A stretch of 64,000 nt of DNA from Squalus acanthias (taxonomy: Eukaryota), in contig CM059432.1 in NCBI GenBank assembly GCA_030390025.1, forward strand, positions 58,468,001 to 58,532,000. The letters run 5' to 3'. Numbering within the stretch: position 1 is the stretch's first letter; every line of letters starts with the position of its first letter. The notes beneath the pieces were generated by a model. That model saw only the letters and a program-made list of their open reading frames with translations. It had not been told where the DNA came from and searched no databases. Shown here piece after piece: positions 4,708 through 41,375 of the stretch. The translations under genes and the position numbers were made by a program.

Positions 4708-4712
4708 CTCAC

Positions 4713-5531: not shown

Positions 5532-5638
5532 CGTCCTCCTGGGCGCAAAGCTGAAATGAGAGAGACCACAAAATATTCCAAACATAATTAATAAATTTAT
5601 CTATGAACATATCACACATATTACATGAATACTATTAA

Positions 5639-14032: not shown

Positions 14033-14794
14033 GGCCCAAAAATTCGGCCGAATACGGGAGAGTACCCGCGGCGTACTCACCCGTATTCGGTCCCAAAGTG
14101 CCGGTTTCCTGCATGCACTGCGCATGCGCGGGAAACCGGCACTTCCGGTATGGCGAAGGGGGCGGTTCCTAGGTGAACCGCGTGCACACTAGAGGCTGTG
14201 CGCACGCAGCACACTTAGGTTTTTTTTCAGGTTTGAACACGAAGGTAAGTATGGAAGATTTTACACATGAAAAAAGGAGGCGTAAGACCCCCTTTTAACA
14301 AGGTAAGTAGTTAATTAAGTATTATTTTAAATTTTTTTCAACAGGTTTATCTTTTTTAGAGACTTTAAAGAAAGGTAAGTTTATTTTTATAACTTTTAAA
14401 AAGAATTTAAAAAATTTCAAATTTAAATTTTTGTTTAAAGTGGTTAATTTATTTAACTATAGTTATTTTATAAATGTGATGGTTTTTTTTTAAATTTATT
14501 TGAGGTTTAGCTGTTCTTTTGGGGACAATTTGTATTCATAAATTTGACAGTTCTCCTGTCAAATCTATGAATGAAAGATGGTGTGCTGCCATTGGCTCTC
14601 CATGGCCCACGTGATGCCAGAGGTCGCATCGCACTAACTGCGCCCCTGGGACACGCACACACTGTGTGCCGGCACTATGGAGAGGCCCAGGACCCGAAGT
14701 TCGTGTGGGCCCGAAACACAACGGCAGACGCGGTAGGTAAGATCGCGCGCGATCCTTACCCCCGCGGCAAGCCTCCGAGTCAAATTTCTGGGCC
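14033..14794 (+). mobile_element. Harbinger-type MITE, AT-core family, copy 1
   Basis: TIR GGCCCAAAAATT/AATTTCTGGGCC; AAT TSD; homologous to 30226-30967 and 57453-58219. Confidence 0.9.
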
Positions 14795-14877
14795 AATATA
14801 CTAATACATGCTTCTGCAAATATCATGCAAATAATTTAAACAGTAACTCAATCAATTATTCTGAAAAGTGACTTCAC

Positions 14878-16783
14878 AATATCCTTTACAATGCATCCTC
14901 TGAAAGCAAGTCAGTTTAACGTCGGTGATGGGGAAACTTTTAGAAACAATAAGCCGGGAGAAAATTAACAGCCACTTGGACAAGCATGGACTAATAAAGG
15001 AGAGCCAGCATGGATTTGTTAAGGACAAATCGTGTTTGACTAACTTGAATGAGTTTTTGATGAGGTAACAGAGAGGGTGGGTGAGGGCAGTGCGGTTGAT
15101 GTTGTGTATATGGACTTTCAAAAGGCATTTGATAAAGTACCACAGACTAGGCTTGTTAGCAAAATTGAAGCCCATGGGATAAAAGGGGCAGTAGCAGCAT
15201 GGATACAACATTGGCTAAGGGATAGAAAACAGTGAGCTGTGGTGAATGGCTGTTTTTTGAACTGGAGGGAGGTGTGGCATTCCCCAACATTCAGTACTAG
15301 GACTACTGCTGTACATTAATGACTTGGACTTGGGGGTACAGGGCACAGTTTTGAAGTTTGCAGATGACACAAAACTTGAAAGTGTAGTAAACAGTGAGGA
15401 AGATAGTAATAGACTTCAAGAAGGCATAGACAGGCTGGTGGCATGGGCAGACACATGGCAGATGAAAATCAATGCAGAGAAGTGTGAGTTGATACATTTT
15501 AGTAGGAAAAATTAGGAGAGACCATATACAATGGTACAATTTTAAAGGGGGTGCAAGAACAGAGAGACCTGGGGATGTTTGTGCACAAATCTTTGAAGGT
15601 GACAGGACAGGTTAACAAAGCGGTTAAAAAAGCATATGGGATCCTGGGCTTTATGAATAGAGGCATAGAATACAAAAGCCAGGAATTTATGCTAAACCTT
15701 TATAAAACACTAGTTCGGCCCTAGTTGGAGTACTGAGTCCAATTCTTGGCACCACACTTTCAAAAGGGCGTGAAGGCTTTGGAGAGGGTACAGAAGAGAT
15801 TTACTAGAATGGTTCCAGAGTTGAAGGATTACAGTTACGTGGATAGACTGGAGAAGCTGGGGTTGTTGTCCTTGGAGCAGAGAAGGCTAAGAGGAGATTT
15901 GATAGAGGTGTTTAAAGTCATGAAGGGTTTAGATAGAGTAAATAGAGAGAAACTCTTTCCATGGCTGAAGGGTTGATAACCAGAGGACACAGAGTTAAGG
16001 TAATTGGCAAAAGAACCAGTGGCGACATGAGGTAAAACTTTTTACGCAGTGAGTGGTTGGGATTTGGAATGCACTGCCACAAACGGTGGTGGATACAGAT
16101 TCAATAGTGGTCTTCAAAAGGGAATTGGATAAATACTTGAAGGAGAAAAAATTGCAGCGATATGGGAAACGAGCAGGGGAGTGGGACTAACTGGATTGCT
16201 TTTTGAAAGAGCCGCGCAGACTCAAAGGGCCAAATGGTCTCCTTCTGTGCTGTACTATCCTATGATTCTATGAAGTCAGTAATCAAGGGAATGCAGTTCT
16301 TTGGTTGAATTACACAGCTGCAGGCAACCTTGTTGCTCTTCTGTTTCAGCTACTGAGTTGAAAGTCATTAACACAGGATCAAAGAACTGCAAGTCTGTAA
16401 GTAGGACAAGAAAATTGATACATTGTTAAGGGATTTATATCTATCACATTAATGAAGACATTTCTATGTTAACCTTTTTTTAAGTTAATGACCAGTCTTT
16501 TCCTCTGCCTTTAAATGATTGGCAATCCCTTACCATCATGACACGGCTGGTTTAAAGCATGACCTCCATTTTAAATTGTCGACAGCAGCTGAGGCCTCGA
16601 GAGTAACCTCAATCAGGGCAGACAGACAACATATTGTCAAATACCAAGGAAGTGTAACCTGAATTTTGAGTGAAGTAGATTATTGAGTCACAGTGATCTG
16701 TATAGCTGCAGATTATGCTTTCTCTTTTGACTGTCTGCAGAAGTTTGGAGAATCAAGTCACCTTTCCTAAGGCCCCACAACAC
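14878..16783 (+). repeat. Duplicated segment, copy 1, left part (interrupted by CR1 14916-16272); paralog of ~34422-35050
   Basis: 16350-16710 nearly identical to 34601-34965; flanks of the CR1 are contiguous in the paralog. Confidence 0.9.
14916..16272 (+). mobile_element. 5'-truncated, decayed CR1 LINE
   Basis: RT fragments (KFADDTKL, RRLRGDLIEVFK); CTATGATT tail; 8-bp TSD AAGTCAGT (14908-14915/16273-16280); empty site at ~34450. Confidence 0.93.
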
Positions 16784-17314
16784 TTAGGGGGCGGTTTTCC
16801 CAGCCCTGAGGAGGCGGGTTTGGAGTCGGGACAGTTCGTAAAATAGCAAAATGTGAGTGCGGGTTCGGAACCCGCCTCCAACCCTCCTCCGCGCAACGTT
16901 GCCGGAGGCAGGCTTCAGGAGTGCGATTCGGTCCCGCCTCCAAGAGGCGGGATAGGCAGTTAAGATCCTTAACAAGCCCCTAAGGGCCTCTGTAATCCTA
17001 TTTTGCCAGGCCTTTGTTATTTTTGCCACATTTTCAGCGTGTTGCACGCCGCTCCTAAATCACGCCAGCTAATCCTGGCGGGTTGACAAGTGGTTGGCCT
17101 CCTCACAGCTGCAGCTCGACCATAAAAACGAAGCTTTCAACAGGGATCAGTTGGAGGTGGCAGAACTTTTTCCCCACAGATCTTTGAGCACTTTTTCCAG
17201 GCCTACTGAAGTCGGAGGTGGTGCAGCTGAGATATATATACTTTGGGACCTCCTGGGAGAACCCTCTCCCTACTTAGACTGAGCGCTTCCCCAACGGAGG
17301 TATCTGCCAGCAGC

Positions 17315-18541
17315 ATGGGAAACATTTATTTCCTTTCATCATGGACCTCCGATTCGGACGAGGAGCAGCCACGGCAGCAGCAGAACCAGGCAGAACAGCA
17401 GCAACAGCAGCAGGAGCGCCAACCTGCTGCTCACCCACCTGATGCTGCACAGGGCAGAAGGCACCAGTGCATGGCAGCACGTCGCCGCAGGAGATACCCT
17501 CCTCTCAGGGTTTACAGACAGAGGATGGGCTTCCTCAACATGAGTGAGCAGCAGTGCCAAAGGAGGCTGAGACTTTCGCGAGAGGTTGTCGGAGACATCT
17601 GCGCAATGCTGCACCAAAACCTGGAGCTCAGAGGATCCGGTGGACACCCCTTACCAGTGGCTGTCAAAGTCACCACCGCAGTCAACTTTTTTGCTTCAGG
17701 CTCCTTCCAGGGATCATCAGCAGACATCAGCGGCATCTCCCAGTCGGCCGCCCACAGTTGCATCACGCAGTTTACCGATGCCCTCTTCAGAAAGGCGCAC
17801 AATTACATCAACTTTTCAACTGATGAAGCAAGTATAACCGTGCGTGCGGTTGGATTTGCAAATATGGCAGGCTTGCCAATGGTGCAGGGCGTCGTAGACT
17901 GCACACATGTGGCCCTTAGGGCACCTCATCACAACCCAGCTATTTTTGTCAACCGCAAGGGCTTCCACTCCCTCAATGTACAGCTGGTGTGTAACCACAA
18001 GAAGGAGATTTCGCATGTTTGCGCCAAGTACTGTGGCAGTTGCCATGACTCGTTCATCCTGCGGCAGTCTAGTGTGCCTCCGCTCTTCAATCCGCCAAAC
18101 CAACTAAACGGATGGCTCCTTGGAGACAAGGGCTACCCACTGAAGAAGTGGCTAATGACGCCGATAAGGAGGCCATCGAACGAAGCTGAGGAGCGCTACA
18201 ATGCCAGCCACATTTTGACCAGGTCCATCATCGAACAAACCATCGGCTTGCTGAAGATGCGATTCAGATGCCTTGACGGATCAGGTGGAGCCCTGCAGTA
18301 CTCAACAGCCAGGGTCTCCAGAATGGTCGTGGTCTGCTGTGCGCTGCACAACATCGCACAGCATCGTGGCTTGCAGCTTCCTGAGGAGCAAGTGGCTCAG
18401 TACATAGCCTCCTCAGATGAAGAGGAGGAGGAGGAGAATGATGACCGAGCGGAGGCGCATCAACTAGCAGCAGCAGCAGCACGCGAGCACATTGCTGGCC
18501 GGAATGCAAGGGATGCACTCATCTTGGCCAGATTTGCTTAG
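17315..18541 (+). CDS. Intact Harbinger (HARBI1-like) DDE transposase, 408 aa from the first ATG
   Basis: Single open frame with [56 protein letters not shown]-terminal poly-Q/Arg stretch and C-terminal acidic tract. Confidence 0.93.
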
Positions 18542-18796
18542 GCTGTCCATTCTAGCACATGTGCTTGGCTCCTTCTTAGCACAAGATAGACAGTGGACAT
18601 GACTCTCTGGCTTCCTCTCACTCTGACCACCAACCTGACCAAGCCAGTCTCGCTGAGGCCGCAATGTGGAGCTTCCAAAATCGAAATCACAGAGGCCATA
18701 ACGTCAACAGTTTGCCATCACCAGAGTTTAATACATTCACAAAGGGATGGCATTTAATCATTAAACACAAAAAAACCCAAGTGACTGCCCGTGTGA

Positions 18797-20727
18797 CTAC
18801 TTGTGCTTTATCTTCCTCTTATGCGTGCTCCTACGTGGTGCTTCCCCTGTGGCTTCAGCAGAAGTGGAGGCCCCTTGCTTACTTTCATGCTGCTCCTGCT
18901 TCAACACTTTTGGCGGGCGTCCTCTGGGTTTGCGAGCCTGTGAGGGCTCGCCAAAAGTCTGCTCCTCCTGCGGCTGTGCAGGGGCTGAGACGCCCATCTC
19001 CGTTGGGTGAGGACTCTGGTGGGACTCTGACCGAGGGCAATGCAGTGGCATGGAAGTGTGAGCGCTTGGAGAGGAGCCCCCACTTCCTTGTTCTCTGCCA
19101 CCAACATACCTCTCATGGGTCAGCCCCACCCAAATGGCTTGTGAGCACCTTGCTGCACATCAGGGGGGCCATGAGGACCCGTCTCTGCACTGGCAGTCCT
19201 ACTGCTGAGGACTTCCATGAAGCTCTGGTCTCTCTGATCAATAGCTGGCCATCGCTCCTCCAGAGATGTCAGTCTATTCTGAACATTGACCATGTTTTCA
19301 ACACTCTGGCGACTTATCTCCTCCATGGCCCTGGCCATCGTCTGCAGAGAGGCAGCCATCGATACCACAGAGGTAGCCAACCTTTCCGAGGAGATGCGCT
19401 CATGCGCCAATGACTCCACAAAGGCTCTGCTCATATTCAAGTTGGACTCTTCCATCCTCTCCACACACGCAGTGACCCTGTATACAAAACCTGCCAGAGA
19501 CCCCTGCACCTGTTCCTGGAGTTCCAGCACCGCTCTCCTTCTGGATGGACCCGGAGGGACAGGGTCCACGTGCAGCTGAGCCGAGCTAGGAGAGTCCTGC
19601 GACCTCCGACGAGGACTCTCCACTGCTGTCCCTGTCTCCACCACCTGCTGATGCTCACCTGTGAGCTGTGATACACCAGGTGACAACACTACTCTATGTC
19701 CCGAAGGTCCCACCGAGGTGTGCGTATCTGCGCTGGTGCTGGGTGCGCTTACATCTGCTGACGCTGCGCCCTCAGAGGTTGCAGGTTCCTCTGAGGAGTC
19801 TTCCGCCTCAGGCTCTTCCTCCTGGACAGTGGGGAGGGGGGCTGTCGATGGTCTTGTGGGGGAGTAAAGGAATGAGTTAGACATGTTACGGTAGTGTGGC
19901 ATGCACATGCAATAGCGCAGATGATCAATTGCCATTCTATAAATATACATCAGCAGCCATTTAAGTGACTCCTGCAATGTAAAAGAGAGAGATGCAAAAC
20001 TATTCTGTCACCAGCTTGCTCTGCTGTGCCCGTCTGACTGTCCCCCACTTCCACCTCCACCTCAGCGCCAACGATTTCCTGGGCCGCCTCTTCAGCATTG
20101 GTCAAATGGGCGAGGGAAGGTGGCCCTCCTCCAGTCTTCACCCTTTCCCTTTTATTGTGGGCTCTCTTTGCCTGCAATGAGGGAGACAAGTGGAGTTTGA
20201 GTGAGAATGATGGAGTGAGTGTAGAGAGTCCAGAGCATAGATGCTTAGAAGGAGACAAAGATGGAGTGAGGTTCTATTTCCAAGGGCCCTCCCTGTGTGT
20301 TGTTAGTCGTTGTCATTGCATAACATTGATAGGGAGTGTGAGGGCAGCATAGTCGAATAGTGAAGTGATTGTGTTCATAGAGTGAGAGGGATGGTTAAGG
20401 GTGCAAGGTTTGTAAGGGTAAAGTGGGATGAGTAGGAGGAGGTTGACAATGCAGAGTGCTGGTGATGAGAGGAGAAAGGGAGCAGAATGAGGGTCAAGCT
20501 GATGGTATACTCACTTTAGCTGATCTTACATTGAACCTCTTGCTGCACACAGATCTGGAGGTGTCATCCCGTGCCAGCTGCACCCGCACAGCCTTGGTTT
20601 GTGTGGGAGGCTTCTTCCTCCCAGATGAGGGGAAGAGCACCTCCTTGCTAGCTCTCACCCCCTCAACCAGAATACTCAGAGACTCACCTGAGAACCTCGG
20701 GGAGGCCTTGGCTCTCGAGTTGGCCAT
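18797..20727 (-). pseudogene. Harbinger Myb/SANT-like gene, 3 exons (20727-20515, 20171-20012, ~19853-18797), apparently defective
   Basis: SPRFSGESLSILVEGV...CSKRFN; 160-nt exon 2; exon 3 acceptor reads CCCACAA|GA versus CCCACAG|GC in element D. Confidence 0.8.
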
Positions 20728-21012
20728 CTCTTCTCAACGCAAAAGTTTCCAAGTTGTGCAGCATCCACAAAACAGCAGTGAAATGATCCAAGGCAGCAAG
20801 CAGCCCTTAAATGAAGCTGCATAAGTGATGTCAGCAGAGGCGCGTTTCAGTCCAAAAAGAGTCATTGGCCCAGGGGAACCCACATGCCCGGAGTTAATCG
20901 GGCAATTAGGGGAAAATCCCAACTTTTTCCCACCTGACAGTGAGAGGCAGGTTCGGCACCCGCCCACCCCCAAACCCGCTCCCAACCCGCCTCCAATGGG
21001 AAAATCATCCCC

Positions 21013-21287
21013 TTTGATAAGAATGCCAATGAGACTGTCCAGAGCTGCCAATATTGGATATGACACTCTAGCATAAAAGACTTCAATACAGGCAGTCATC
21101 CATTTTTATTTAAGTGAATATAAGGGCTAATTCACCAAGGGGGCATTAAACAGAGCATATTGTTGCAGTCTGGGAGCATATTTTACTAAATTGCATAAGT
21201 CGACCCAAGTACCCAATTGACAAAGCACGGAATTCAGAGAGTGAAACATTTTCGAACAATTTGGAGACCTCATACAGAGCATGCATG
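21013..21287 (+). repeat. Duplicated segment, copy 1, right part; paralog of 36469-36744
   Basis: Colinear similarity from ATGCCAATGAGA to CAGAGCATGCAT; visibly more diverged than the left part. Confidence 0.88.
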
Positions 21288-21417
21288 AGCCTTATTACAC
21301 TTCTTAAATCATTTAAGCATTAAACAGTACACATAAGTAGGCTTGTTTTAGTTAGTGTCACTCTGATGCAGCTGATTCACGCAACACAAATCAAATAAAT
21401 ATTCCTGTATTTTACAT

Positions 21418-23060
21418 TGCATTACATAAAATTACATAGGATATACGGCACAGAAACAGGCCATTCGGCCAAACCAGTTAATGCCGGCGTTTATGCTCCA
21501 CTCGAGACTCCTCCCGTCTTTCTTCATCTAAATCTATCAGCATAACCCTCTATTCCCTTCTCCCTCATATGCTTGTCTAGCCTCCCCTTAAATACTTTTC
21601 GCTTCAACCACTCCCTGTGGTAGCGACTTCCACATTCTCACCACTTTTTGGGTAAAGAAGTTTCTTCTGAATTCCCTTTTGGCCTCTAGTTATGCTCTTC
21701 CCCACAAGTGGAAACATTCTCTCTGTATCCACTCTATCAAAACCTCTCAGAATTTTAAAGACATCTAATAGGTCGCCCCTCAGCCTTCTTTTTTCAAGAG
21801 AAAAGAGACCCAGCCTGTTCATCCTTTCCTGATATGTATACCCTCGCATTTCTGGTATCATCCTTGTAAATCTTCTCTGCACCCTCTCCAGTGCCTCTAT
21901 ATCCTTTTTATAATATGGCGACCAGAACTGTACGCAGTACTCTAAGTGTGGTCTAACCAAGGTTCAATACAGGTTTAGCATAACTTCCCTACTTTTCAAT
22001 TCTATACCTCTAGAAATAAACCCTAGTGCTTGGTTTGCTTTTTTTATGGCCTTGCTAACCTGTGTCGCAACTTTTAGTGATTTGTGTATTTGTACTCCGA
22101 GATCCCTTTGTTCCTCTACCCCACCTAGACTCGCACCCTCCAAGTAATAGTGACCTCTCTATTCTTCCTACCAAAATGTAATACTCACATTTATCTGTGT
22201 TGAACTTCATTTGCCAATTACATGCCCATTCTGCAAGTTTATTAATGTCCTCCTGTAATTTGTTGCAGTTCTCCTCAGTATTAACTATCCCCCCCAATTT
22301 GGTGTCATCCACAAATTTAGAAATTGTGTTTTTGATTCCAAAGTCTAAATCGTTAATATAAATTGTGAACAACAGTGATCCCAGCAGTGATCCTTGTGGA
22401 ACACCACTACCCACCTTCTGCCATTGTGAATAGCTACCTTTTACCTCTACTCTCTGCTTTCTGTCTTGAAGCCAGCTAGCTATCCATTCTGCTCCTTGTC
22501 CCCTGACTCCACATTCTCTGACCTTGTTCATCAGTCTATTATGGGGTACCTTATCGAAGGCCTTTTGAAAATCTAGATAAATTACATCTACTGCATTACC
22601 ATTGTCTACTCTCTCTGTTACCTCTTCAAGAGATTCAATGAGGTTGGTCAAGCAAGACTTTCCCTTTTGAAATCCATGCTGACTATTCATTACTATGTTT
22701 TTGGTTTCTAGATGTTCTTCTATTTTCTCCTTTAGTAGGGGTTCCATTATTTTTCCTACCGCCGATGTTAAGCTGAGTGGTCTATAATTCCCTGGACATG
22801 TTCTATCCCCCTTCTTAAATATAGGTATTACGTCCTCTGGCACTACACCTTTTTCTAACGAATTATTAAATATGTGTAGTAATGCCTCTGCTATCTATTC
22901 CCTAAATTCTTTTAAAATGCGTGGGTGCAATCCATCCGGACCAGGGGTTTTATCCTCTTTGAGTTTGATTAGTTTATTTAATATATCCCCTCTTTTTATT
23001 TTAAATGCACTTATCTCATTACTAATCTCATCACCCAATGCCATGTCCACCTGTTCTATC
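21418..23060 (-). mobile_element. 5'-truncated CR1 LINE (second family; same 3' UTR type as 62858-63360)
   Basis: RT ORFs 22055-22843 and 21604-21960; 3' UTR and ATGTAA-type tail. Confidence 0.93.
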
Positions 23061-23307
23061 TATTTTATGCCTAGAAACATCTTAAGTTACAGGCAGACAT
23101 GTTGCTTGTTACAAAATCTATATAAAACTGCAGGTAACAATACACAACTCACTGGAAAGAGCGAATATAGCAGTTCAATATACAGAATTTAAAAAACAAC
23201 TTTTCAAGAAAATGATACTCGGTAATGTGTCCTGTAAATTATTAATCAAATTAAGCTGAGAACCAGTCTGCAAAGATAATTTCCTCCTTCGTAATCCTTT
23301 TTCACAG

Positions 23308-23520
23308 AGTCCATTGCCATGGCAATGGAGGGGAAAGTCAAAGGTAGGACAGCCTGTAGCTCTCAGACATCCCAGTATCAACAGCAATAAAGCTCAAATT
23401 GGATGTCTAGTTCTCAGTGCAGCCTGTGGGTCCTATGTTTGGTCTAGGTATCTTTCTCAATGGGATATTTGATACTATGGACTCAAATTCAGATGGCAGC
23501 ATTGCACCAATGGAACTGAG
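23308..23520 (+). CDS. Candidate host gene exons (23308-23343, 23448-23520) encoding an EF-hand
   Basis: TTTTTCACAG|36 nt|GTAGGA, 104-nt intron, TCTAG|73 nt|GTGGAG; phases compatible; spliced product xSIAMAMEGKVKGIFLNGIFDTMDSNSDGSIAPMELR with canonical D-x-N-x-D-G-x-I-x-x-x-E loop. Confidence 0.55.
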
Positions 23521-23808
23521 GTGGAGCAGGACTTCCACCAAACTCCAGGTCACGTCGTTGATCCAATTGCAAATTGTGGGGTCAGCTAATTTAAATGGTG
23601 TGAGGCATGCAGGCTTTCTAATTACAATCTGTAACACCTCAAACACATGCGGTAGGGAAGGTTGGAAAATAGTCCAGGTAAGGGTTAGGCACTAAATGAG
23701 TTATGGGGGGAGGGGAACGAGGGGGCAGTGCAGTGCAGAGAGGAGTGGGGATGGTAGAGGGAGAGGCAAAGACCTGGTGCAGTAGCAGGATATAAAAGCT
23801 ACCGCTGC

Positions 23809-24780
23809 TTAAAGGGTCAATAGCAGCAGGAGGAAGCAGGCAATGTAAGCAGCCAGATTGAAGAAAATAATGGCAAATTTTAGTGAGCTGTACCTGCATG
23901 TATTCATAATGGAGATACAGAGCAGGTTGAATTGTCTGTTTGGGGTCATGGGCCAGAGACCTGCTGAAAATCCATTACGCAATTTTTGGAGAGCGATTTT
24001 GGTGGCAGTGAATACCTCCTCATTGAACTCTAAGGGGGATGAATTGGGTTGGCTTGAGCCTCTCGTTAGCGTCCCCGGGGGGCACTAATGGGGCGCAAAT
24101 CCCCTAGGACCTGGGCGCAGCACCGCTAACGCCTCCTGCAAAATTCAGCGGGAGGTTAGTGGCGGTGGTAGCCGGTAGCGGCCCGCGGCGCTACTCCGCC
24201 ACCGATGACGTCATTGCCGAGCAACACAACCCCTTAGCACCCCGCCACGGCCCCTTACTGCCCCGCGGCAGAAATTCGGCTGCACCCCGCGAAGCTGCCG
24301 TGGGCGATGTCAGCGACAGCCTCGTGGGTCACGAACTGGGCTGACCTCCGCTCGCGAGGCTGTAATTAAAGGGGAAGCCCGGCTGCATCCCGCACCGCCA
24401 TTTTATTGTTTTGGCCGACCTCCAGGTCAGCCCCTCATGGCCTGCAGAATGCGCAGCGTCCCTCCCCTTTAACGGAAGGGGAGGGGCGATGAAATGCGTC
24501 AGCGCTACGCGGAGCAGTTGCATAGTGCTCCAGCACTACCAAGCTTTGTGCCCCAGACACCACCCAGAGAGGAAGTGGAGAGCCCGAGATAGCACTCCGC
24601 TTCCTTGCTGGGGCGGTAAGCCCAATTTAACGGCCAGGGCAGTCCTCCCCTGCTGGGCGCTAAATGGCTGGCGCTAATTCGGTTACCGCCCCCAAACGGG
24701 GCGTAACTGAATTTCTCCCCCTAGGACTCTTTTGCCATGCAGGAAGAAGATTGATGGTCTCAGCACAGCAGACAAGGTAA
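23809..24780 (+). pseudogene. Decayed Harbinger Myb/SANT exon 1 interrupted by a MITE
   Basis: Removing 24034-24721 restores ANFSELYL...FWRAILVAVNTSSLNSRTLLPCRKK...K|GTAAGC. Confidence 0.7.
24034..24721 (+). mobile_element. Harbinger-type MITE, GC-rich family
   Basis: TIR GGGGGATGAATT/AATTTCTCCCCC; TAA/TAG TSD; subterminal CGTTAGCG...CTAATGGGGCG shared with 45596 and 51053. Confidence 0.88.
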
Positions 24781-25660
24781 GCTACCTGCTCCCCTGACCC
24801 TTCCTTATAATCGCTCCATATGTGTGGCATTCCTTCATTCATTACCCTCACTGTGTCAGTTGAGTTAGAGGTGAAAGTTGGATCTGACATTAGAGCGTGG
24901 AAGATCCGCAGAAGTCCAACCCCGGCTCCCGATCCTGCAGACTCAGACCTCTGGGGTCCTGCTACAAACAGAGGTTGCTGGATGTGCATCAGACTCGCAT
25001 AGAGTTACTGAAGATCATATCAGAGGAACTGAGACAGATAGTGGGGGTAACAGTGAGGTTCAATGCCATCTCAGTATCAATATCTGAGAAGCATTCAACA
25101 CAATGCAGCGCTACCTGTAATGGGCGATGGCACCAAAAACATCTGCGTCCATCCCAGGTGATTAAGAGGGCTCCAAAACAGTTAGTGCATTCAAAGTGGA
25201 TGCTTTGACCATTGGCCTTGAGGCTTTGTGTGACCATTTAGAGAATGATGGAAAGCAAATTCTGAGAGCTTCGGAGTGACATCTCTCAGGGTCTGCAAGA
25301 TCTAACCAATACCATCAGATTTGCCTTTCCACTGATAAGTAGGAACACTGATCCTAGGCCCAGCAAAAATGGAGTGGTGCATGCTCATGTAGATGTCAGG
25401 ATAATAGACCAGGCTGCCTATGCACCTGCAGGGACAACATAGCCTGTTGAAACGTCCTCCCAGGATTCAGAAGCCCTGAGGCATGAGTCACCTCATTCCG
25501 AAGAGGCTCATGATGAAACAGCACTATATAGGAACGCCCATAGTGAACCACATAGTAAGGGCTCCATGACAGAAATGTTGGAAGAAAAAGCCTTCCCTGC
25601 CTGAAACTGCTGAAATGCAGCTTGCAGAATCCGTTCTTAGCAGCACATCTGAAAATAGTT

Positions 25661-25822
25661 GGGGGTAATTTTCACTTTCAGCCGTGGGAAAAATACTGGT
25701 CAGTGTGGATCGGCTGCCCGTTACACACTCTGTCTGGAAAGGAACATTGTGCAGGGTATCTTATGGGCGACCGATCCGCAATCGTCAGTTTGCTGCCCGC
25801 ACCGGAAGTGAAAATTACCCCC
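25661..25822. mobile_element. 162-bp MITE with Harbinger-like ends
   Basis: Perfect 17-bp TIR GGGGGTAATTTTCACTT/AAGTGAAAATTACCCCC; no clean TSD (GTT/GAC). Confidence 0.75.
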
Positions 25823-26092
25823 GACTTTTCTAATTGCTTCAGTCAAAGTTGATGTTTTAGACAAAGTTTGTGGCCATTCAAAGCCTGAGAACTTTACCAA
25901 TTCCTGGTGCAGTGGTGCCCAATACCAACACCCCCACCCCATCTTGAAAGAGTCCCCCCTCCTCTGAGCTAAAATAGCCCCCCACTAGCCCACCAATGTC
26001 TATAGGACTAAATTAACATAAAACAGTCATTATGCTAAGCTTTTATATTACTAGAAGTAGCAAAAGCAGATTAAAAAGACAATAGATGTTGA

Positions 26093-27966
26093 TCAGCAAA
26101 TCAGCAGGTTCTTTCTCATTGGACTTGTCAATGCAGAACTTGATATAATGTCATTGTTTGTAACTGATCCTAAAATATCACTTTCACAGGATTTGATAGC
26201 CATGTATCTGACGTGATCAACATTACCTTGTTTTTTATAATAGCGATATGGCTGATGGTGCGTTCTACAACAACACTCATTACTGCAATCAAACACAAAA
26301 TTGAACACAGAGCTAATAAGTTTGGAGATCCTGAAAGTTGACTGACAGGCCTGAGTAGTTTGATAAACCCATAACCAATCCATCTTGAGAATGAAATATC
26401 AATTTCTGTTTCTTCTGTATCATCCTCCTGTTCTTGGTCTGTTTTTGACATTTTGATGGTAAGATCTTCAATTTAGATACTTGTGTGAGTTACAGCATAC
26501 ATTTCTTTGAAGGTGGATAGCTCCTGAACGACCAGAGAAGAGGTGATGTTGTAATATTCACACAGCTTACAGACATCAGGCTCCAACAGTGTCTCTTTAT
26601 TTTGTAGCAGATTGTTTGAGGCTACGAAGCCCATTTCTCTGAATATAGACAGAGAATGATCAGAAAAGCGATCATTTAGTTGCGTTTATAAGCAGGTCGA
26701 TTGATAGAAAATGCACTTCAATTTTTAGTCCCCGACATTCATTGGTGATCGGTGTATCAACACCAAGCTCATTGAAAAATCACTTTTGTTTTCTGCTTCT
26801 CGTTGAAGCCGGAACTTCAATGTCGTGTTTGTGTGTAAAATCGTGGATTTCTGCTTCTACAACTCTCCAGGACCCTTGAAGGTTTTGAAGCTGCTCGCTA
26901 TTACTGATGAGACCAGAAACAACCCAATAATCAACATTGTTCCATGTTAGCAAATCATGACTGGAGATAACAGTGTGGATAGCTTTTTGCAGATGATTAT
27001 CGCTGCGATTAGTTCCGTCTCTGAGAGACATTTTTTCAAGCTATTAGTGCCTTTAACTGTTTCAGGGTTCACTCTTTTCTCTTCTGCAAGAACATCGAAG
27101 TGTCACAATGAGTTCCTCCAATGCTGCAGAATCATTGTTAGTGCATGCGCTTTGCTGCTCCAACTTGTTTGGACTCACTTTAGTCATCTGCTTGCGTTTG
27201 GCTTGCTTAAGCTTTCGGTTAATTTGTGATGCCATTCTTGACCAGACATATAACTGTTCTAGAACATCAAAAAGATCTTTGAGAAGTGGACAGACTTCAA
27301 TACGACTGAAGCAAAGCGATGCGAAGAACATCAGACGTACAGAGATGTCTTGAATTCTGACAACATCAAAGATTTCAGACTCTTGTACTTGCCCTGCATG
27401 TTTCCTGAACTATCCATGCCATGTCCAATGAGGTTATTCAGGTCAATTGCATGATGCTGCATAGTTTTCCTGACTTCTTCATTTATATTCTCGCCACTTG
27501 TGTCACCACAAGTCAATGCTTCAATTAAACGTTCCACAGGCTTAACAACTTGTTGATTGAATGAATCAATGTAACGAATAATCAAAGTTACTATCTCTTA
27601 CTGACATCTTGGCTGGAATCCAAAATCATTGAAAACCTGCCATTCTTTTTTACAACGGTGACTATTTTAAAGGACACTAATTTGCTCATACATTTGATCA
27701 ATGCAAATACGTTCCTATAGGTTAAAAAAACGGAGTCATGTTTCTTCTTCTCCAAATCTGCTTTATCAGTTGTATTCATATATGACTGAGCTGCCAGGCT
27801 GTGTTTTGAAAAAGCTCAGAATAAACATGGTAACTTGCCGTTTAATTTCTGATTTCTTATGAAAGTTATTACTTCTCTGCTCAAATATTGGCAGCAATCG
27901 ATTAACACAGAAAAAAACCTGAATAGTGTTTTCTGTCTTGAATTGGCCATGATTACTTTGCAACAT
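26093..27966 (-). pseudogene. Decayed hAT-superfamily transposase (ZMYM1/DUF4371-like)
   Basis: Colinear fragments FSMILDSSQDVSKR, IIRYID...PVERL, IGHGMDSSGNMQGKYKSLK; many stops and frameshifts; termini not established. Confidence 0.75.
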
Positions 27967-28189
27967 TTTGTGCCTTGCACACTGGCTCGAAACTAAACCA
28001 GCAAAGCCAGGTGAAGCCCAGCAGGCTTGCCCCGGCTTGGCACAGGACTGTTTTAACGCTATCGGGACTCAGCCGCTAATGGCGGATGCATTGCACGGGC
28101 TGCTGCAATGTTTGAACAATGTTCGATTACTGGGTTTACCTCACGTTTACTTAAATATCCGACAACTGTGCATTTGATCTGTGTGCATT

Positions 28190-28830
28190 AGCAGGGCCCC
28201 CCATGATGGGCAGGAAAGGGGGGGGGGGGGATGGTTAAATCAGCAAATCTGCGAAACCTGACTCCAACCTGCTGCGAACGCGCCTACTTCCATTTTAACC
28301 TCGGTGGGTTTCGAGGTGTCCAACTAACCCGCTCTGGGGGAGGGGGGTTCTGTAATTATAATATTTAAATGAGCCTTTGTTTCTGACATTTTGGCATTGA
28401 TTTGAATTGAACACCTCCTTCACGGGTATCCTAGAGCTCTGGAAACCTGGCAGGTAAAGGGAAGCGGGAGCAGCCAGGTCCAGCAGTTAAGTGCTTTTTA
28501 TAGCACTGCTTGTGGGCCAAGGAAAGCAAGCTTATTCCCCCGCTGGCCCCTCAAACAAATCTTCTGTCACAATCGGCTGACCAACTCCCCACCCCCGCAA
28601 TCTTACCTGGTCCCCACCCCTCCCTCCTGATTCCAGTCTGACGACCCCCCTTACTAACCCGGTGCAGCCCTCCCTCCCAATTGCAGATCCAATATCCCCC
28701 ACCAACCCACAATGTTTCCCGGGAAATGGAATTAAAAAAATAATGAGGTCCTCTGCATTCCCGACATTTCCAGGTTTACCCCGCAAACATGCTCCCCCTC
28801 TACCTCTCCGCCTCCTTGTAAATATCTGGT
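28190..28830. mobile_element. Degraded non-autonomous Harbinger-like element
   Basis: Subterminal similarity to 46633-47640 (CCAACC...ACTT.C.TTTTAAC...GGG) and a C-rich interior; ends unclear. Confidence 0.4.
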
Positions 28831-28956
28831 CCAATGATGTTGATCTCTCACTGAGCCACTGATGTTGACTGCAATACAAAACTTGAATGGAAAAGCTGAG
28901 AAGCAAAGTAGAGAGAAACGATGAAAGATAGCTGACGGTATGCTGAAAGGCATAAC

Positions 28957-31486
28957 GGGGGAAAAAATTGGGCTGGTTTGTGCCTCTCGTTAGCGCCCCC
29001 GGTGGCGGGTCGGGTGGGAAAGTTGTTAATTTTGACAGCGGGTCCCGAGCCGCTGTCATCCCGCCCCACGTGCCTTTCCCCAGGCGTGTCTGTCATCGTG
29101 GAGCCAACCGAACCGGCAGCGGCGGGCGACCCAATTGAGGTGATTAACAGCTAGTTGTCAGACCCTTAACAGGTTTTTTTAACTTACTTTTTAAATTTAA
29201 TTGCATGGCCATGGTAACCAAGCTGCTCTGGAAGCACGTCTGTCAACCTGAGGCGGGAGTTCAGTGGCCATTGCTCCAGCTGATTGGCTGACAGCATCAA
29301 ATGTACAGTAAAAGCTCCCACCTGTCAGATGATCACTTTCCTCAGGCAGAAGCTGTTGCTCAGTCCATTTCCAGCACAGATTCTGCAGGCTGCAAGTCTT
29401 TCCAGCAAAGTCTCCATCCAGTTTCACCTCATTGGAAGAACTCTCTCACCACTGACAGATCGCTTCTGTCATCTGTACTTCACCTGCCATCTATTCCATC
29501 AACAGGGGTGCCGTTTATACTGTCTGACCTTGGTCCTCAGAATTGGACCACAATGAGCCCCAACGCCAGCAGCACCAACAACAACAACACCAACCTTCTC
29601 CGCAATCACCTGATGCTGCACAGGACACAGAACATCAGCACCCGAGCACATTGCTGCCCAGGAGACCAGGGATGGCCTCATCACGGACAGATTTACTTCA
29701 CTTTACACTGTACACCCACATGGCTGCCACATGATGCGCCAGGTTGGCACCATCCCACACAATGACCAAGCCATTCCTTTCACGCTCATCACTATTGCGG
29801 GGAGGGGGGGGGAGTGGGGGCGGTACCGTTATGTCTCACCATTCACTGCAACTCACTAAGCCACTTCCAAAGGTGCACACAAATCTGTCCAAGAATGGAA
29901 AGTGTTGAAAATAAAGATTTCAATGTTTGACACCACATTAATAGAAACTTTGCATAAACATTGCACAAAACACCCAAGTGCCTACCCTTGTGTGTTGTTA
30001 GTTGGTATGATTGCACTAGGCTGAGGGTGAGTGTGAGGGGTGGTTAGTCAGATGGGGATGTGATAATGTAGATAGAGAGAGAGGGATGGGTGGAGGTGCA
30101 AGGTAAGTTGGTGTGAGTAAGGATATGCAGGAGTAGGGTAGGGAAGGCAGAGTGATGGGAATGTGATGAGAGGCACAGCAGGATGAGGTTGAGTGTTGCT
30201 TTATACTAACATTTCCTGATTTATTGGCCCAGAAATTAAACACTGAGCGTTCCTGCGGGGGTAAGGCTTCCCCGCGATATCTCACTGCGCGCCTACCTTT
30301 TCCCTCCGGGCCCACACGAACTTTAGTTTCAAGGCTGCAGCTGTGCAGTGCTTGCGTGACCCACAGACGCAGTTAGTTCGTGCGAGCTCTGGGATCACGT
30401 GATTCAGTTAGAGCCAATGGCAGCACACCATCTTTCATTCATAGTTTTGACAGGAGAACTGTCAAAGCTATGAATACAACTTACCCCCAAAAGAACAGCT
30501 AAACCTCAATTAAATTTTTTTTAAAACCATCACATTAATAAAATAAGTATAGTTAAATAAATTAACCACTTTAAACAAAAATTTTAATTTTTGAAAAAAT
30601 TTAAAATCTTTTTAAAAGTTATAAAAATAAACTTACCTTTCTTTAAAGTCTCTAAAAAAGATAAACCTGTTGAAAAAATTTAAAATAATACTTAATTAAC
30701 TACTTACCTTGTTAAAAGAGGGTCTTACGCCTCCTTTCTTTATGTGTAAAATCTTCCATGCTTACCTGCGCGTTCAAAGCACTAAGTGCACTGCGTGCGC
30801 GCAGCCTGTAGCGCGCACGCGGTTCACTTAGGAACCGCCCCCTTTTGAGTTCACGAAGTGCCGGTTTCCCGCGCATGCGCAGTGCATGCTGGAAACCGGC
30901 AATTGGAGACCTAAAACGCGAGAGTACACAGTGCGTACTCTCGCGTATTAGGTCTAATTTTCGGGCCAATGAGATAATTGAAACGTTTGCAGCACTGCGC
31001 CCAGGTCCTCCTGACAACAGCCCTGCTTGTGACCTCCTCTGCAATCTGTAACCAGGCTGTCTTGGTCTCCTGGGGTGGTCTCTTCCACCCATCGGAAGGG
31101 GAGAGGCCCTCCCTGCGTGCTCTGACTCACTTCATAAGCATATGGACGGAGTCATTGGAGAACCTGGGTGTAGCCCTCTGCCTCTGTGCAGTGATTGTCA
31201 GTGTTTGCAGCACTCCAATGCTGTAGTGCACTGACAGCACTATGTTAGATTAAACGTCAAACCTAATGTGGCCATGGTCCCTTTAAAGATCCCGGCTGAA
31301 AACGTGTCATGAATGACATCACCAGACCCACTTCATTTAATTGGGCCGGGTAACGCACTGGGCGGGCTTAATAGGCCCTACTAACGTAAGTTCGTTTTCA
31401 GCAGCGGGATGGAGCCAGCAGCGGGGTCGCAACCTGCCACAGACACCGCCCACACCGGACCCGCCCAGGTAGGCAAAGTTCCGGCC
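28957..31486. mobile_element. Internally deleted Harbinger derivative (transposase 5' remnant ~29510-29670; Myb exon 1 remnant on minus strand) containing a MITE
   Basis: Left GGGGGAAAAAATT, right AAAGTTCCGGCC; poly-Q...PDAAQ remnant like element C; QCCKRFNYL...K|GTTAGT. Confidence 0.7.
30226..30967 (-). mobile_element. Harbinger-type MITE, AT-core family, copy 2 (inverted)
   Basis: TIR GGCCCAGAAATT/AATTTTCGGGCC; ATT/AAT TSD; reverse-complement homolog of 14033-14794. Confidence 0.9.
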
Positions 31487-31559
31487 TTTGTACATATTCA
31501 TGGACTACTGTAAGTAGTGATACTGGTTGCATTAAATATATCTAACAACAGCATTTTTC

Positions 31560-31700
31560 TTAGAATTACAATGCAGTAACAGGCCATTTGACCCAAACAT
31601 TCCGTGTTTATCCTTCACATGAGCAGCGGTCCTAATCACATGCCCTGTTCCCATATCCCTTTGTTCCCCTTTCTTTCAACCACCTATCTAATCTAACTTT
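31560..31700 (-). mobile_element. Old CR1 3' tail fragment
   Basis: CAGGCCATTTGACCC...CCCATATCCC resembles the reverse complement of CR1 3' UTRs. Confidence 0.45.
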
Positions 31701-32689
31701 ATGCCTTAATCCCATCAGTGCTTACTTTTGAAAAGGGATATATCATTACAGAGACCATAGTTTGAAGAGCCAACCACTGCATTAATCAGAGACATCATGA
31801 AAAACCTTTGGAGATGTCATGGATCTAGGAGTCGGAGCAAGCTCTGAAAACAAATGCTGGCAAGCTGAAATTAATCCTTCAGCAACAGTCATCACCATCA
31901 TCTGCTCCTCTAAGAAAACAAGTAAGTCAAAGGTGTGTCAGTCTTCTCACTGGCAATCAGCTCTTTGTACAGACTCTGTAAATATTCATAATAATATACA
32001 GCACCTGTTTACAACTTTAAAATAAAGAAGACTACTGCTGGAAAAATAAACAGAATATGTAGGCTGAAGCCATCTGTGTAGATGACAGAGTTTATTATGT
32101 GAGAGCTGAGATAATTAAAGTAGAATTCATTTTCCAGCCTAGAGGTATATAAAATAAATGTTGACAGTATAGAGGCAGCTGCGGACCTAGAGATCTCTTT
32201 GAAGGCCCCTGAGCACTAGCTGCATATACTACCACATGAAAAATCAATAGCAGTTTTGCTTTCCATGTGACACTACACTGACAGTTCCCTTATCTTAGCT
32301 TAATCTTAAGTCGGGTTAAATGCGTCACTACTCTGACATATGCAACAATTGATCTAAGTTTACTATATTCATATTTCTCCATTGACAGTCCTATTCTGTT
32401 CAATAAACAACACCATCCATCTTAATTATATTCCATTCCTTTGCAATAAAACGTGTGGTGTGCCCAGCATTTTATTGTGTTATTTTGGGAGTGTGAGAGT
32501 TTGTTAATATATCTGAATAATTCTCTGCATAATATTAAATTACTGAAAGATGGAAATATATAATAATGAATATACTCATTCACAATTTCCTTTTAGAGAA
32601 GTTTATTAGTAGCACTCTAATACAGATTCACTGTAATCGATTGAATTGTCTCTTATTCCCATACATAGATTTATCCTTGATTAATTTTC

Positions 32690-34120
32690 TTTTTATTCGT
32701 TGACGGATGTGGGCGTCGCTGGCAAGGCTGGCATTTATTGCCCATCCCTAATTGCCCTCAAGAAAGTGGTGGTGAGCCGCCTTCTTCAACTGCTGCAGTC
32801 CGTGAGTGGCTGAGTGGCTTGCTGGGCTATTTCAGAGCTAATTGTCAACCACATTGCTGTGGGTCTTTTATTTATTCATTCCTGGGATCTGAGCGTCGCT
32901 GGCAATGCCAGCATTTATTGCCCATCCCTAATTGCCCTGAGAAGGTGGTGGTGAGCCGGCTTCTTGAACCGCTGCAGTCTGTGTGGTGAAGGTACTCCCA
33001 CAGTGCTGTTAGGGAGGGAGTTCCAGGATTTTGACCCAGCGACGATGAAGGAACAGCGATATACTTCCAAGTCAGGATGGTTTGTAACTTGGGAGGGAAC
33101 TTGGAGGTGATGGTGTTCCTATGTGCCTGCTGCCCTTGTCCTTCTAGGTAGTAGAGGTCGTGGGTTTGGGAGGTGCTGTCGAAGAAGTCTTGGCGAGTTG
33201 CTAAAGTGCATTTTGCAGATGGTACACACTGCAGCCATGGTGCGTCGGTGGTGGAGGGAGTGAATGTTTAAGGTGATGGATGGGGTGCCGATCAAGCGGG
33301 CTGCTTTGTCCTGGATGGTGTCGAGCTCCTTGAGTGTTGTTGGAGCTGCAAGTGGAGAGTATTCCATCACACTCCTTACTTGTGCCTTGTAGATGGTGGA
33401 AATGCTTTGGGGAGTCAGGAGGTGAGACACTCGCCGCAGAATACCCAGCCTCTGACCTGCTCTTGTGGCCACAGTATTTATATGGCTGGTCCAGTTAAGT
33501 TTCTGGTCAATGGTAACCCCCCAGGATGTTGATGGTAGGGGATTCGGCGATGGTAATGCTGATGAATGTCAAGGGGAGGTGGTTAGACTCTCACTTGTTG
33601 GAGATAGTCGTTGCCTGGCACTTGTGTGGTGCGAAAGTTACTTGCCACTTATCAGCCCAAGCCTGAATGTTGTCCAGGTCTTGCTGCATGCAGGCATGGA
33701 TTGCTTCATTATCTGGGGAGTTGCGAATGAAACTGAACACTGTGCAGTCATTAGCGAACATCCCCACTTCTGACCTTATGATGGAGGGAAGGTCATTGAT
33801 GAAGCAGCTGAAGATGGTTGGGCCTAGGACACTGTCCTGAGGAACTCCTGCAGCGATGTCCTGGGGCTGAGATGGTTGATCTCCAACAACCACAACCATC
33901 TGGAGTCACATGTAGGCCAGACTGGTTAAGGATGGCAGATTTCCTTCCCTGAAGGACATTAGTGAACCAGAGGGGTTTTTCTGACAATCCGGTAGTTTCA
34001 TGGTCACCATTACTGATACTAACTTTTTTTAAATTCCAGATTTGAACTCACGTCTCCAGATAATTACTCCAGGTCTCTGGAATACCAGTCCAATAACATA
34101 ACCACTATGCTACCGTTCCC
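32690..34120 (-). mobile_element. tRNA-derived SINE (MER131/Meta-SINE-like core) split by a LINE insertion
   Basis: Head GGGAACGGTAGCATAGTGG (A box) ... GAGTTCAAATC (B box); core GGTTCACTAATGTCCTTCAGGGAAGGAAATCTGCC...GTGACTCCAGA|CCCACAGCAATGTGGTTGAC; tail 32690-32800 shared with the LINE. Family name recalled, not searched. Confidence 0.75.
32866..33898 (-). mobile_element. 5'-truncated CR1-group LINE, distinct from the HER1-like family
   Basis: GVPQDSVLGP, MFAND, ATRAGQRLGILRR...KAQVRSVMEY; 3' UTR GGGATGGGCAATAAATGCTGG. Confidence 0.88.
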
Positions 34121-34421
34121 GGCATCTAGTCACATGGTCGAAAAATGTCAGGGCCTATAATTCTGACAAACAACCATGGTGTCTGTCCAGCATAATTATG
34201 AATTGAAATGTTCTGAATTTATTTTGCTATGAAAATGGACCAAAATTAAAGAGGCTTCCTGAGAAGATGGGCCTGACCAGGATAACTGCATGCATGGATT
34301 TTATTGTTTGTTATTTTCCCTGATAATAATGTTAATAGTAATTGTGTTTTGTAATACCACAGACTTTTTGAAAATGGGCTTCTCCAATGCTCATTGACTT
34401 AGTGATTATCAACACCTCAAA

Positions 34422-35050
34422 GCATCCTTTGCAATGCATCCTCTGAAGGCAAGACAGTAATCAAGGGAATGTAGTTCTTTGGTTGCATTACACAGCTGCG
34501 GGCAACCTTGTTACTCTTCTGTTTCTAACTTTCTTTAGGGTAGGTTCCAAAAGACAATAATAACTCAAAAAGTATTTTCTGCTCCTGACTCAGCCAGGAG
34601 CTACTGAGTTGAAAGTCATTAACACAGGATCAAAGAACTGCGAGTCTGTAAGTAGGACAAGAAAATAGATACATTGTTAAGGGATTTATATCTATCACAT
34701 TAATGAAGACATTTCTATGTTAACCTTTTTTTAAGTTAATGACCAGTCTTTTCCTCTGCCTTTAAACGATTGGCAATCCCTTACCATCATGACAAGGCTG
34801 GTTTAAAGCATGACCTCCATTTTAAATTGTCGACAGCAGCTGAGGCCTCGAGAGTAACCTCAATCAGGGCAGACAGACAACATATTGTCAAATACCAAGG
34901 AAGTGTAACCTGAATTTTGAGTGAAGTAGATTATTGAGTCACAGTGATCTGTATAGCTGCAGATTACTCTTTCGACTGTCTGAAGATATATTTCAATGAG
35001 AAAGGATCCGTAAGTTTGGAGAATCAAGTCACCTTTCCTAAAGCCCCACA
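34422..35050 (+). repeat. Duplicated segment, copy 2, left part
   Basis: Paralog of 14878-14915 plus 16273-16783; has an extra 73 bp (34526-34598). Confidence 0.9.
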
Positions 35051-35052
35051 AC

Positions 35053-36468
35053 AGATAAAATTCGGTATCGCCCCGGTTGGGGCGCTAACTTTTGAGAAGT
35101 TGGAAGTTCAACGCCAGGCGCTAATCAATCTCGCTGCCCGCTAAATTCAGTCTCAGCGCTCAAAGAATGCAGGGGAGTGCTAAATCAGGCGCTGATGGCA
35201 TAAGTGAGTGGTGTTAGGCTCCAATGATATCATTGACCAGAAACTTAACTGGACCAGCCACATAAATACTGTGGCAACAAGAGCAGGTCAGAGGCTAGGT
35301 ATTCTGTGGCGAGTGTCTCACCTCCTGACTCCCCAAAGCCTTTCCACCAACTACAAGGCACTAATCAGGAGTGTGATGGAATACTCTCCACTTGCCTGGA
35401 TGAGTGCAGCTCCAACAACACTCAAGAAGCTCGACACCACCCAAGACAATGCGCCCGCTTGATTAGCACCCCATCCACCACCTTAAACATTCACTCCCTC
35501 CACCACTGGCGTACCATGGCTGCACTGTGTACCATCTACAAGATGTACTACAGCAACTTGCCAAGGCTTCTTTGGCAGCACCTCCCAAATATGAGACCTT
35601 TACCACCTAGAAGGACAAGGGCAGCAGACGCATGGGAACACCACCACCTCCAAGTTCCCCTCCAAGTCACACACCATCCTGACTTGGAATTATATCGTGT
35701 TCCTTCATCGTCGCTGGGTCAAAATCCTGGAACTCCCTCCCTAACAGCACTGTGGGAGTACCTTCACCACACAGACTGCAGTGGTTCAAGAAGGCGACTC
35801 ACCACCACCTTCTCAAGGGCAACTGGGATGGGTAATAAATGCTGGCCTTGCCAGTGACGTCCACATCCCATGAACGAATATTAAAAAAATACCGAATATC
35901 AAGTGTTGTGTAATCGGGAGTGAGCATTGGCGAAGGTGCCTTGCAGCCATTAAAGGGGAAGGTCACTGGAGTCTGCACACCAGCCCCCAATGATTCGGGG
36001 AGAGTAGAACGGCGATATGTTGAGGGATGAAATCAAAGTCCTTTGACGACCCGCAACACTCCGGGGACTAAGCAGCCTTTATTTGGCTGCAGATACATCC
36101 TGCGCTCTCTGCCACTCATCTCTGACCTTTGGAACAGAAGTTCCTTGACAGCTGGGGTGCATCCCTTTAAGTAGCGCCCCGCCAGCCGGCTGGTTCACAC
36201 CTCCGCTCCCTGACGCTGTCGGCGCGAGGCGGTAAGGCGGGGGGGGCGCTACTGAAGTTTGCAGATCGGGCTCCCAGCAAGCTCGCTGACGTCATGATCT
36301 GCATGGTGAAATGTGCTGAGGCACTAACTGTTATCGTTGGCGCTACAGGGCCGGTGAATTTGCCAAGCGGCGTGGGATTTGCCCCGCCACGGCACTACTG
36401 CCTGAACGCCCCATTCGCGCCCCCACCAGGTGCTAACTGGGGGCGCTATCATGACAAATTTCTCCCCC
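35053..36468 (-). mobile_element. GC-rich Harbinger-type MITE (left terminal G-run lost) containing a LINE fragment
   Basis: Left AAAATTCGGTATCGCCCC matches the reverse complement of the 46484 end; right AAATTTCTCCCCC followed by TTA. Confidence 0.8.
35226..35889 (+). mobile_element. 3' fragment of the same LINE family as 32866-33898
   Basis: IDQKLNWTSHINTVATRAGQRLGIL; same 3' UTR; A-rich tail. Confidence 0.88.
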
Positions 36469-36744
36469 TTAGATACAGGATGCCAATGAGATTGTCCACA
36501 GTAGCCAATATTGGATATCACACTCTAACGTAAAAGGTTTCAATACAGACAGTCATCCATTTTTATATGAGCGAATATATATGACTAATTCAGCAATGGA
36601 ACGTTAAACAGAGTATACTGTTGCATTCTGGGAGCATACTTCATGAACCTGGGTAAGTAGACTCAAGTGCCCAATTGACAATACACGGAATTCAGAGAGT
36701 GAAACATTTTCTAACATTTTGCAGACCTCATACAGAGCATGCAT
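36469..36744 (+). repeat. Duplicated segment, copy 2, right part
   Basis: Paralog of 21013-21287. Confidence 0.88.
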
Positions 36745-36984
36745 TCCGTCCACTGTTTTTATATTGGACCCATGCTGAATTCAATGATATTTATCATTTG
36801 TTCCCTGTCTCAGCACTGCTTGCCCATTTATAACAGGAACTGCTGGGATTTTCTGGTCTGGTCTTCAGAAGTTTGATTCTTAAAGGTGCGATTGGCAGTT
36901 TAGTATAGTGTTTAAAGTTCTCTTTCCATTTTTCGAGCGCATGTTCGTGTGTGTGTGTTTTCTCTCCCCCTTCACTTTGTTCTG

Positions 36985-41086: not shown

Positions 41087-41375
41087 TTACACAAGGGTAT
41101 GCACATGGGTATGTTAGGCAATGTTGTACTGTGAAGGTTATGTTGAAATTTGGAGGAACGTAAAATTATTTCATTGTACCACTTTCCCGTCTTGCTGAAT
41201 TTTGTCTGTTGCCTGGCGCGTGGCCTTGTCACTTGTAATGAATAGTAAGACACGACTTAACTGCGAGCAATGGATGTCTATGAAAGGAATGGTTTGGTCA
41301 TTGTAGGACTGCTTTGTGGTTGGGAGGGGAAAGTGGGTCCAGCATCTGAGTGCCAGATCGGTGCACTGGTGCAAC

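Follow-up and report, generated by a model that had tools for sequence, protein, structure and literature searches.

Different Harbinger-type elements at the same target triplet in two paralogous segments of a shark genomic window

The stretch of shark DNA analysed here, a repeat-rich window of 64 kb, holds a short segment in two directly repeated copies, recognised by self-comparison and pairwise alignment, and each copy carries a different insert at what appears to be the same TTA triplet. How did two dissimilar transposable elements (hereafter element C, in copy 1, and element M, in copy 2) come to occupy one position? The initial annotation of the locus favoured independent insertion at the same nucleotide, which was taken to imply strong target specificity, and named excision followed by reinsertion and gap-repair replacement as the alternatives.

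The alignment of the flanks bears out the view of two paralogous segments with different inserts at the same TTA, the left flanks pairing over 16273-16782 and 34451-35053 and the right flanks over 21013-21286 and 36469-36744 (Table 1). In copy 1 the left flank is interrupted by a LINE-like insertion (about 14917-16272), upstream of which the paralogy picks up again for 45 nt (14871-14915 with 34414-34458); outside 14871-21286 and 34414-36744 no paralogy was found in the 19 unique stretches tested. The divergence between the copies is uneven, amounting to 40 mismatches in 271 columns on the right (14.8%; 16% corrected) versus 4 in 368 (1.1%) in the left block 16348-16715, with 5/75 and 3/61 mismatches in the remaining parts of the left flank. 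The idea that the segment is a high-copy repeat found no support, since each of four sequencing runs yielded one or two contigs of it. An Rfam search of 34300-36900 for an RNA gene gave no match at E<=1, and the longest six-frame peptide of the segment, checked as a candidate coding exon, has 63 aa.

Table 1. Coordinates of the duplicated segment, its two inserts and the target triplets within the window
Feature	Position	Strand	Remarks
Copy-1 upstream left-flank piece	14871..14915	+	84% to 34414-34458
Copy-1 left flank	16273..16783	+	ends in AACAC; block 16348-16715 99% identical to 34599-34966
Left target triplet TTA of element C	16784..16786	+	read from the sequence
Element C	16787..21012	+	4226 bp, two-gene PHIS/Harbinger; imperfect TIRs with GGGG start; subterminal motifs GGAGGCGGG
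Transposase ORF of element C	17315..18541	+	open, 408 aa; PF13359 DDE_Tnp_4, E 2e-36
Second gene of element C	19120..20727	-	multi-exon; first exon appears decayed (translation)
Right triplet TTT of element C (mutated TSD)	21013..21015	+	read from the sequence
Copy-1 right flank	21016..21286	+	40 mismatches in 271 columns against copy 2
Copy-2 left flank	34414..35053	+	lacks the final C and the left TTA
Element M	35054..36468		non-autonomous; right TIR GGGGGAGAAATT; left end short by about 3 Gs
LINE-like 3' fragment inside element M	35228..35893	+	88% to 32862-33515
Right target triplet TTA of element M	36469..36471	+	read from the sequence
Copy-2 right flank	36472..36744	+	pairwise alignment to copy 1

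By its predicted transposase and its ends, element C belongs to the PIF/Harbinger superfamily (PHIS). The D, D and E motifs of the transposase lie at residues 194, 270 and 305, and the two ends of the element, whose TIRs are short and begin with G, align with each other at z 6.1 against 200 shuffles. Two pieces of the second gene were searched in Pfam and neither matched; from its Myb likeness it is probably the Myb/SANT-type partner. The family is high-copy in all four sequencing runs examined, with thousands of contigs compared to one or two per run for the host segment.

Element M is a member of a different family, with three relatives within the window: its arms match 24034-24721, 45596-46484 and 51053-51826 at 60-69% (E 1e-5 to 1e-16), and its own two ends pair at z 3.9 against 200 shuffles. 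It is non-coding, has TIRs and belongs to a dispersed family (the three window relatives), features by which Harbinger/Tourist-like MITEs are recognised. The initial description of a MITE that had lost its left G-run thus stands as regards its non-autonomous nature and the loss of about three Gs, and needs amending as regards its make-up, which is about 750 bp of element plus a nested LINE-like piece of 666 bp. The latter differs from 32862-33515 at 60 of 651 columns (9.2%), with 6 gaps; a Pfam search of 35228-35893 gave no match, and from its translation the piece is presumably a LINE.

When the two inserts were compared with each other, the best blastn hit had an E value of 0.17 (39 nt, 69%) and the best tblastx hit one of 0.10, and the four pairings of an element C end with an element M end scored z 1.3, -1.0, -0.2 and 0.4 against 200 shuffles. 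The arms of element M had no match in element C, a terminal run of 4-5 Gs being all that the two have in common. The inserts therefore do differ in TIR, subterminal sequence and content, as first described, and the derivation of element M from element C by deletion is refuted, there being neither terminal nor internal homology and the arms fitting other elements of the neighbourhood. With no homology between the inserts and with the arms of one of them placed in another family, two integration events are the simplest reading, and on these sequence comparisons it is likely that two separate integrations took place at one triplet.

The case for a shared position depends on the junctions. Copy 1 reads AACAC-TTA, element C (16787-21012) and TTT-GATAAG, and copy 2 reads AACA, element M (35054-36468) and TTA-GATACAG. 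In the alignment the right breakpoints fall on the same nucleotide, TIR|TTT GATAAG in copy 1 and TIR|TTA GATACAG in copy 2. Neither insert retains an intact TSD pair. The 4.2-kb element between TTA and TTT was correctly described, with the qualification that its TSD is imperfect (the paralogous copy reads TTA at this place, and perfect 3-bp TSDs flank 5 of 9 other local elements). In element M the left triplet is gone: judging by alignment to the ends of its relatives, the left junction lacks about 7 nt, comprising the C of the host, the TTA on the left side and some three Gs. Because this junction is damaged, the left breakpoint of element M is placed by its relatives and is not directly visible, so that the claim of equal breakpoints holds exactly on the right side and by reconstruction on the left. 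The same-site claim rests on the right junctions and is thus unaffected by the uncertain history of the copy-2 left flank. The GATAA at the left end of element M, which also matches the right host flank, was considered as an excision footprint and set aside, as it would need an extra duplication.

Whether the position is a preferred one was examined in the 785-nt copy-1 segment emptied of its insert, by ranking 770 positions with symmetric target matrices built from 9 other window elements with both ends visible. Two insertions would share a site with a chance of 1 in 770 (0.13%) without preference, or 1 in 41 if limited to the 41 TWA triplets of the segment; same-triplet occupancy thus exceeds chance under no preference. 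Among these TWA triplets, only the used one has an AACWC half-site. It reads C|TTA|G, being one of four CTNAG sites in the segment, and is the sole best match (8/9) within the TWA set to the maize PIF target consensus, which is a 9-mer. AACWC directly adjoins the TSD in all three complete relatives of element M, the shared site having AACAC; among 200000 random triples, sharing of this order occurred twice, a figure to be read knowing that the motif was spotted after inspection and in three elements. The half-site touches the opposite end of element M compared with its relatives, and is absent from three C-like elements.

The matrices give a more sober picture. The 9 other elements have a purine after the triplet in 9/9 cases, a pyrimidine before it in 8/9, A at -4 in 8/9 and T at +4 in 3/9. 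With the matrix of all nine, the site ranks 55th of 770 when the triplet is scored and 127th when it is not; the matrix of the three element M relatives places it 30th with the triplet and lower without, and that of the three C-like elements 102nd and 227th, respectively. Under such matrices two insertions would coincide with a chance of about 1-9%, against the uniform 0.13%. The TSDs of the element M relatives are TAA/TAG, AGA/AGA and CTT/TTT (element M itself keeping the right TTA only), and the left triplet is TAA or TTA in just 2 of the 9 local elements, the others having AGA, GAT, GTA, AAT and so on; given this variety, TTA by itself is not a family rule, and C|TNA|G fits one of the nine. 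The zebrafish Harbinger3_DR 15-mer explains the choice of site poorly, with a fit of 7/15 that is equalled at 97 of the 770 positions. A sequence-specific (homing) transposon was rejected, the 9 other local elements sitting in 9 unrelated flanks and the contigs of element C numbering thousands against one or two of the segment. Moreover, 14 Harbinger-like elements or element ends span about 28.5 of the 64 kb (hand-drawn boundaries), and at this density and a coincidence rate of a few percent such an event may well be unremarkable genome-wide. One coincident pair with a chance of 1-9% does not show strong specificity; the inference originally drawn from independent insertion is thereby partly supported, in that two elements do sit at one nucleotide in a site that fits preferred PHIS targets, and what the ranks of 55-127 convey is preference, not proven strong specificity.

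The order of events was approached through sequencing runs labelled with various organisms. Parts of the left flank were present in 16 of 19 runs among those listed, labelled with at least 7 organisms, and contigs, which show presence and not absence, were inspected in detail for four runs. Element C is found at the flank junction also in two other organisms: contigs run from the flank 38 letters into the element in organism A, about 37 in organism C, and 27 in organism D, the last under the 31-letter rule. Over 20982-21430 organism A matches the window without a difference; it may be the same species, and is hence not independent. In organism D, 20 of 466 letters differ over block 16348-16715 and its neighbour. 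Right flanks of the copy-2 type were found in organisms A and D. The presence elsewhere of both the flank-element C junction and the copy-2-type flank indicates that the duplication and element C are both older than a split of about 4%. Among 15 of the 302 joints listed none was an empty-site allele, and among 24 of 6873 listed there were no loose contig ends at element termini. When neutral decay was simulated, the 1227-nt ORF of element C survived substitutions alone in 3.5% of runs at 7.5% divergence, and in below 0.1% once frameshifts were allowed, whereas at 2% divergence 5-41% of runs kept it open; as it so rarely survives 7.5%, element C likely arrived after the segment had duplicated. 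In block 16348-16715 the two copies resemble each other more than the species do (4/368 between the window copies versus 20/466 in organism D), which disfavours selection as the cause of the 99% identity and points to a recent conversion, probably gene conversion.

The explanation that we favour, with some reservation, is that two unrelated Harbinger-type elements inserted separately, each at the favoured triplet, in the two segments that an old local duplication had produced. The segment would have duplicated first (right flanks 16% apart), after which element C would have entered copy 1 at a time when the organisms sharing it had not yet separated (about 4% flank divergence), and element M would have entered copy 2 at an undated time, with a later loss of 7 nt from its left junction and the gain of the LINE-like piece. 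The 370-bp left block would have been homogenised recently, probably by gene conversion. As with mPing and Harbinger3_DR, the two proteins encoded by the element would determine the choice of target. Copy 1 may never have been occupied by element M, or may have been freed of it by precise excision. The latter possibility leads to the main competing history, unlikely in our judgement and still deserving attention, in which element M or another element predated the duplication and was excised precisely from copy 1, element C then using the restored triplet. PIF/Harbinger elements are reported to excise precisely as a rule (in yeast, 109 of 110 mPing events; PMC2836001), Stowaway elements are described as re-entering a vacated site (PMC1925063), and element M looks old, with a damaged left junction and a nested piece 9.2% and 6 gaps away from another copy. 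This distance, however, caps the age of that piece and sets no minimum age for element M; the junctions of element C hold no relic or footprint of element M, although precise excision leaves none anyway; and one additional event is required. Even so there would be two integrations at one site, so that a target preference is needed there too. A further reading, improbable in our view, would have an unrelated Harbinger family preferentially take over a site that another has left, the excision break or the restored target recruiting the new integration and gene conversion reaching the junction, so that elements would turn over serially at fixed vertebrate loci.

Replacement by gap repair supposes a single ancestral insertion, the gap after excision having been repaired from a different element, or one insert having been derived from the other by deletion. 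The G-runs opening both TIRs, the scarred left junction of element M and the near-identical left tract, a sign of recombination near the site, are in keeping with it, but beyond 4-5 Gs the inserts have no terminal or internal homology, the two ends of each match one another, and the derivation of element M from element C is excluded; this proposal of the initial annotation is thus largely refuted and very improbable. Lower still we would place the possibility that chimerism in the assembly, or else a recent rearrangement at the 99% block, has produced the paired arrangement. It would account for the finding that in four runs block 16348-16715 appears in one contig at a time, joined to element C where traceable, that contigs over this region carry the copy-2 alleles at 16308 and 16391, and that organism A holds 0.56-0.57 of the copy-2 left-flank words, a share close to the 0.555 that the block by itself would give and short of the 0.76-0.86 predicted if the upstream part were included. 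Against it, run X2 has both right flanks (the copy-1 type, identical over 449 nt, and the copy-2 type), run X8 has the copy-2 type, and the right junctions that carry the same-site claim are not affected.

Separate insertion at one favoured triplet would be a further example of known behaviour. PIF is reported to have come to light when it inserted six times independently at precisely the same site of the maize r gene (PMC4565680), and these insertions involved two distinct PIF elements (Walker et al. 1997, as cited in PMC1925063), so that same-site insertion of two distinct elements founded the family. The present case resembles the r locus in having two distinct elements of the superfamily at one site, and differs in concerning paralogous copies in one genome, ancient events and families with unrelated ends. 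As described in PMC1925063, divergent Stowaway elements in intron 4 of the Triticeae beta-amylase gene also share one site, with repeated gain and loss, but belong to the Tc1/mariner superfamily, target TA and leave footprints. A literature search for shark Harbinger target sites found nothing on the subject. What the locus offers is a clean vertebrate case of insertion homoplasy: a Harbinger-type element at the same nucleotide is not proof of common descent, which matters for the use of these insertions as markers in phylogeny. The case would become weightier only if vacated sites were refilled above the rate predicted by sequence preference.

The target preference of the superfamily is given as 9-15 bp (PMC2836001), and the locus adds one more data point to those of PIF, mPing and Harbinger3_DR. 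The zebrafish element, with the target AAACACCWGGTCTTT (PMC3016246), is like element C in its two genes, its TIRs starting with GGG and the AACAC half-site beside the triplet. It differs in its triplet, CWG versus TTA here, the right half of its target being unmatched beyond G; NuwaI/Harbinger3_DR are recognised by a CWG TSD and a 15-bp target, for which TTA and 7/15 were found. The NuwaII group of PHIS, whose target is given as C|TNA|G (PMC4482050), agrees in this target, in GG-starting TIRs, in a length of about 4.2-4.7 kb and in a DDE transposase accompanied by a second ORF; this is a likeness by target and description, not phylogeny, and the local relatives here use AGA, GTA and GAT.

The left flanks of the two paralogous copies of the short duplicated segment share a 370-bp block (16348-16715 in copy 1, 34599-34966 in copy 2) with 99% identity, against 85% in their right flanks. 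In other sequencing runs a single contig was seen for this block, with the copy-2 alleles linked there to element C, the two-gene PHIS/Harbinger element of copy 1. A recent gene conversion or rearrangement is the likely cause of such identity. The left flank also carries exon-like pieces (34542-34604 and 16348-16394) with acceptor and GTAAGT donor signals, a stretch of which copy 1 lacks 73 bp.

Because an imperfect inverted repeat, ATGCAT-C/G-CTCTG-A/T-A, lies close to both its ends (34433-34446 and 36731-36744), the duplicated segment might itself be an old non-autonomous element; homology between the copies extends about 20 nt leftward beyond 34433-34446.

Target triplets repeated on either side of other local elements (TSDs) are listed below, TWA being the class that includes TTA and TAA.

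Target triplets of other elements in the window
Element	Position	Triplet
Element	39127-43095	GTA, perfect, non-TWA
Element	45596-46484	AGA, perfect, non-TWA
Element	46633-47640	GAT, perfect, non-TWA
C-like, non-autonomous	2209-3053	TAA, perfect
Third non-autonomous family (TIR GGCCC..AAATT)	14033-14794, 30226-30967, 57453-58219	AAT/ATT-type

The C-like element adjoins another Harbinger element (about 3054-7832), and one third-family copy is nested inside the element at 28958-31488. In its triplets this family resembles Pangu, for which an ANT TSD is described.

Two Harbinger elements contain tandem arrays (4713-5532, unit about 37 bp; 10199-10639, unit about 38 bp). A stretch of about 1.6 kb (47816-49400) is a possible solo LTR, since it contains a polyadenylation signal and its termini are TG...CA-like. 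A 164-bp element (25661-25824), with no clear-cut TSD, has inverted ends of 15 bp.
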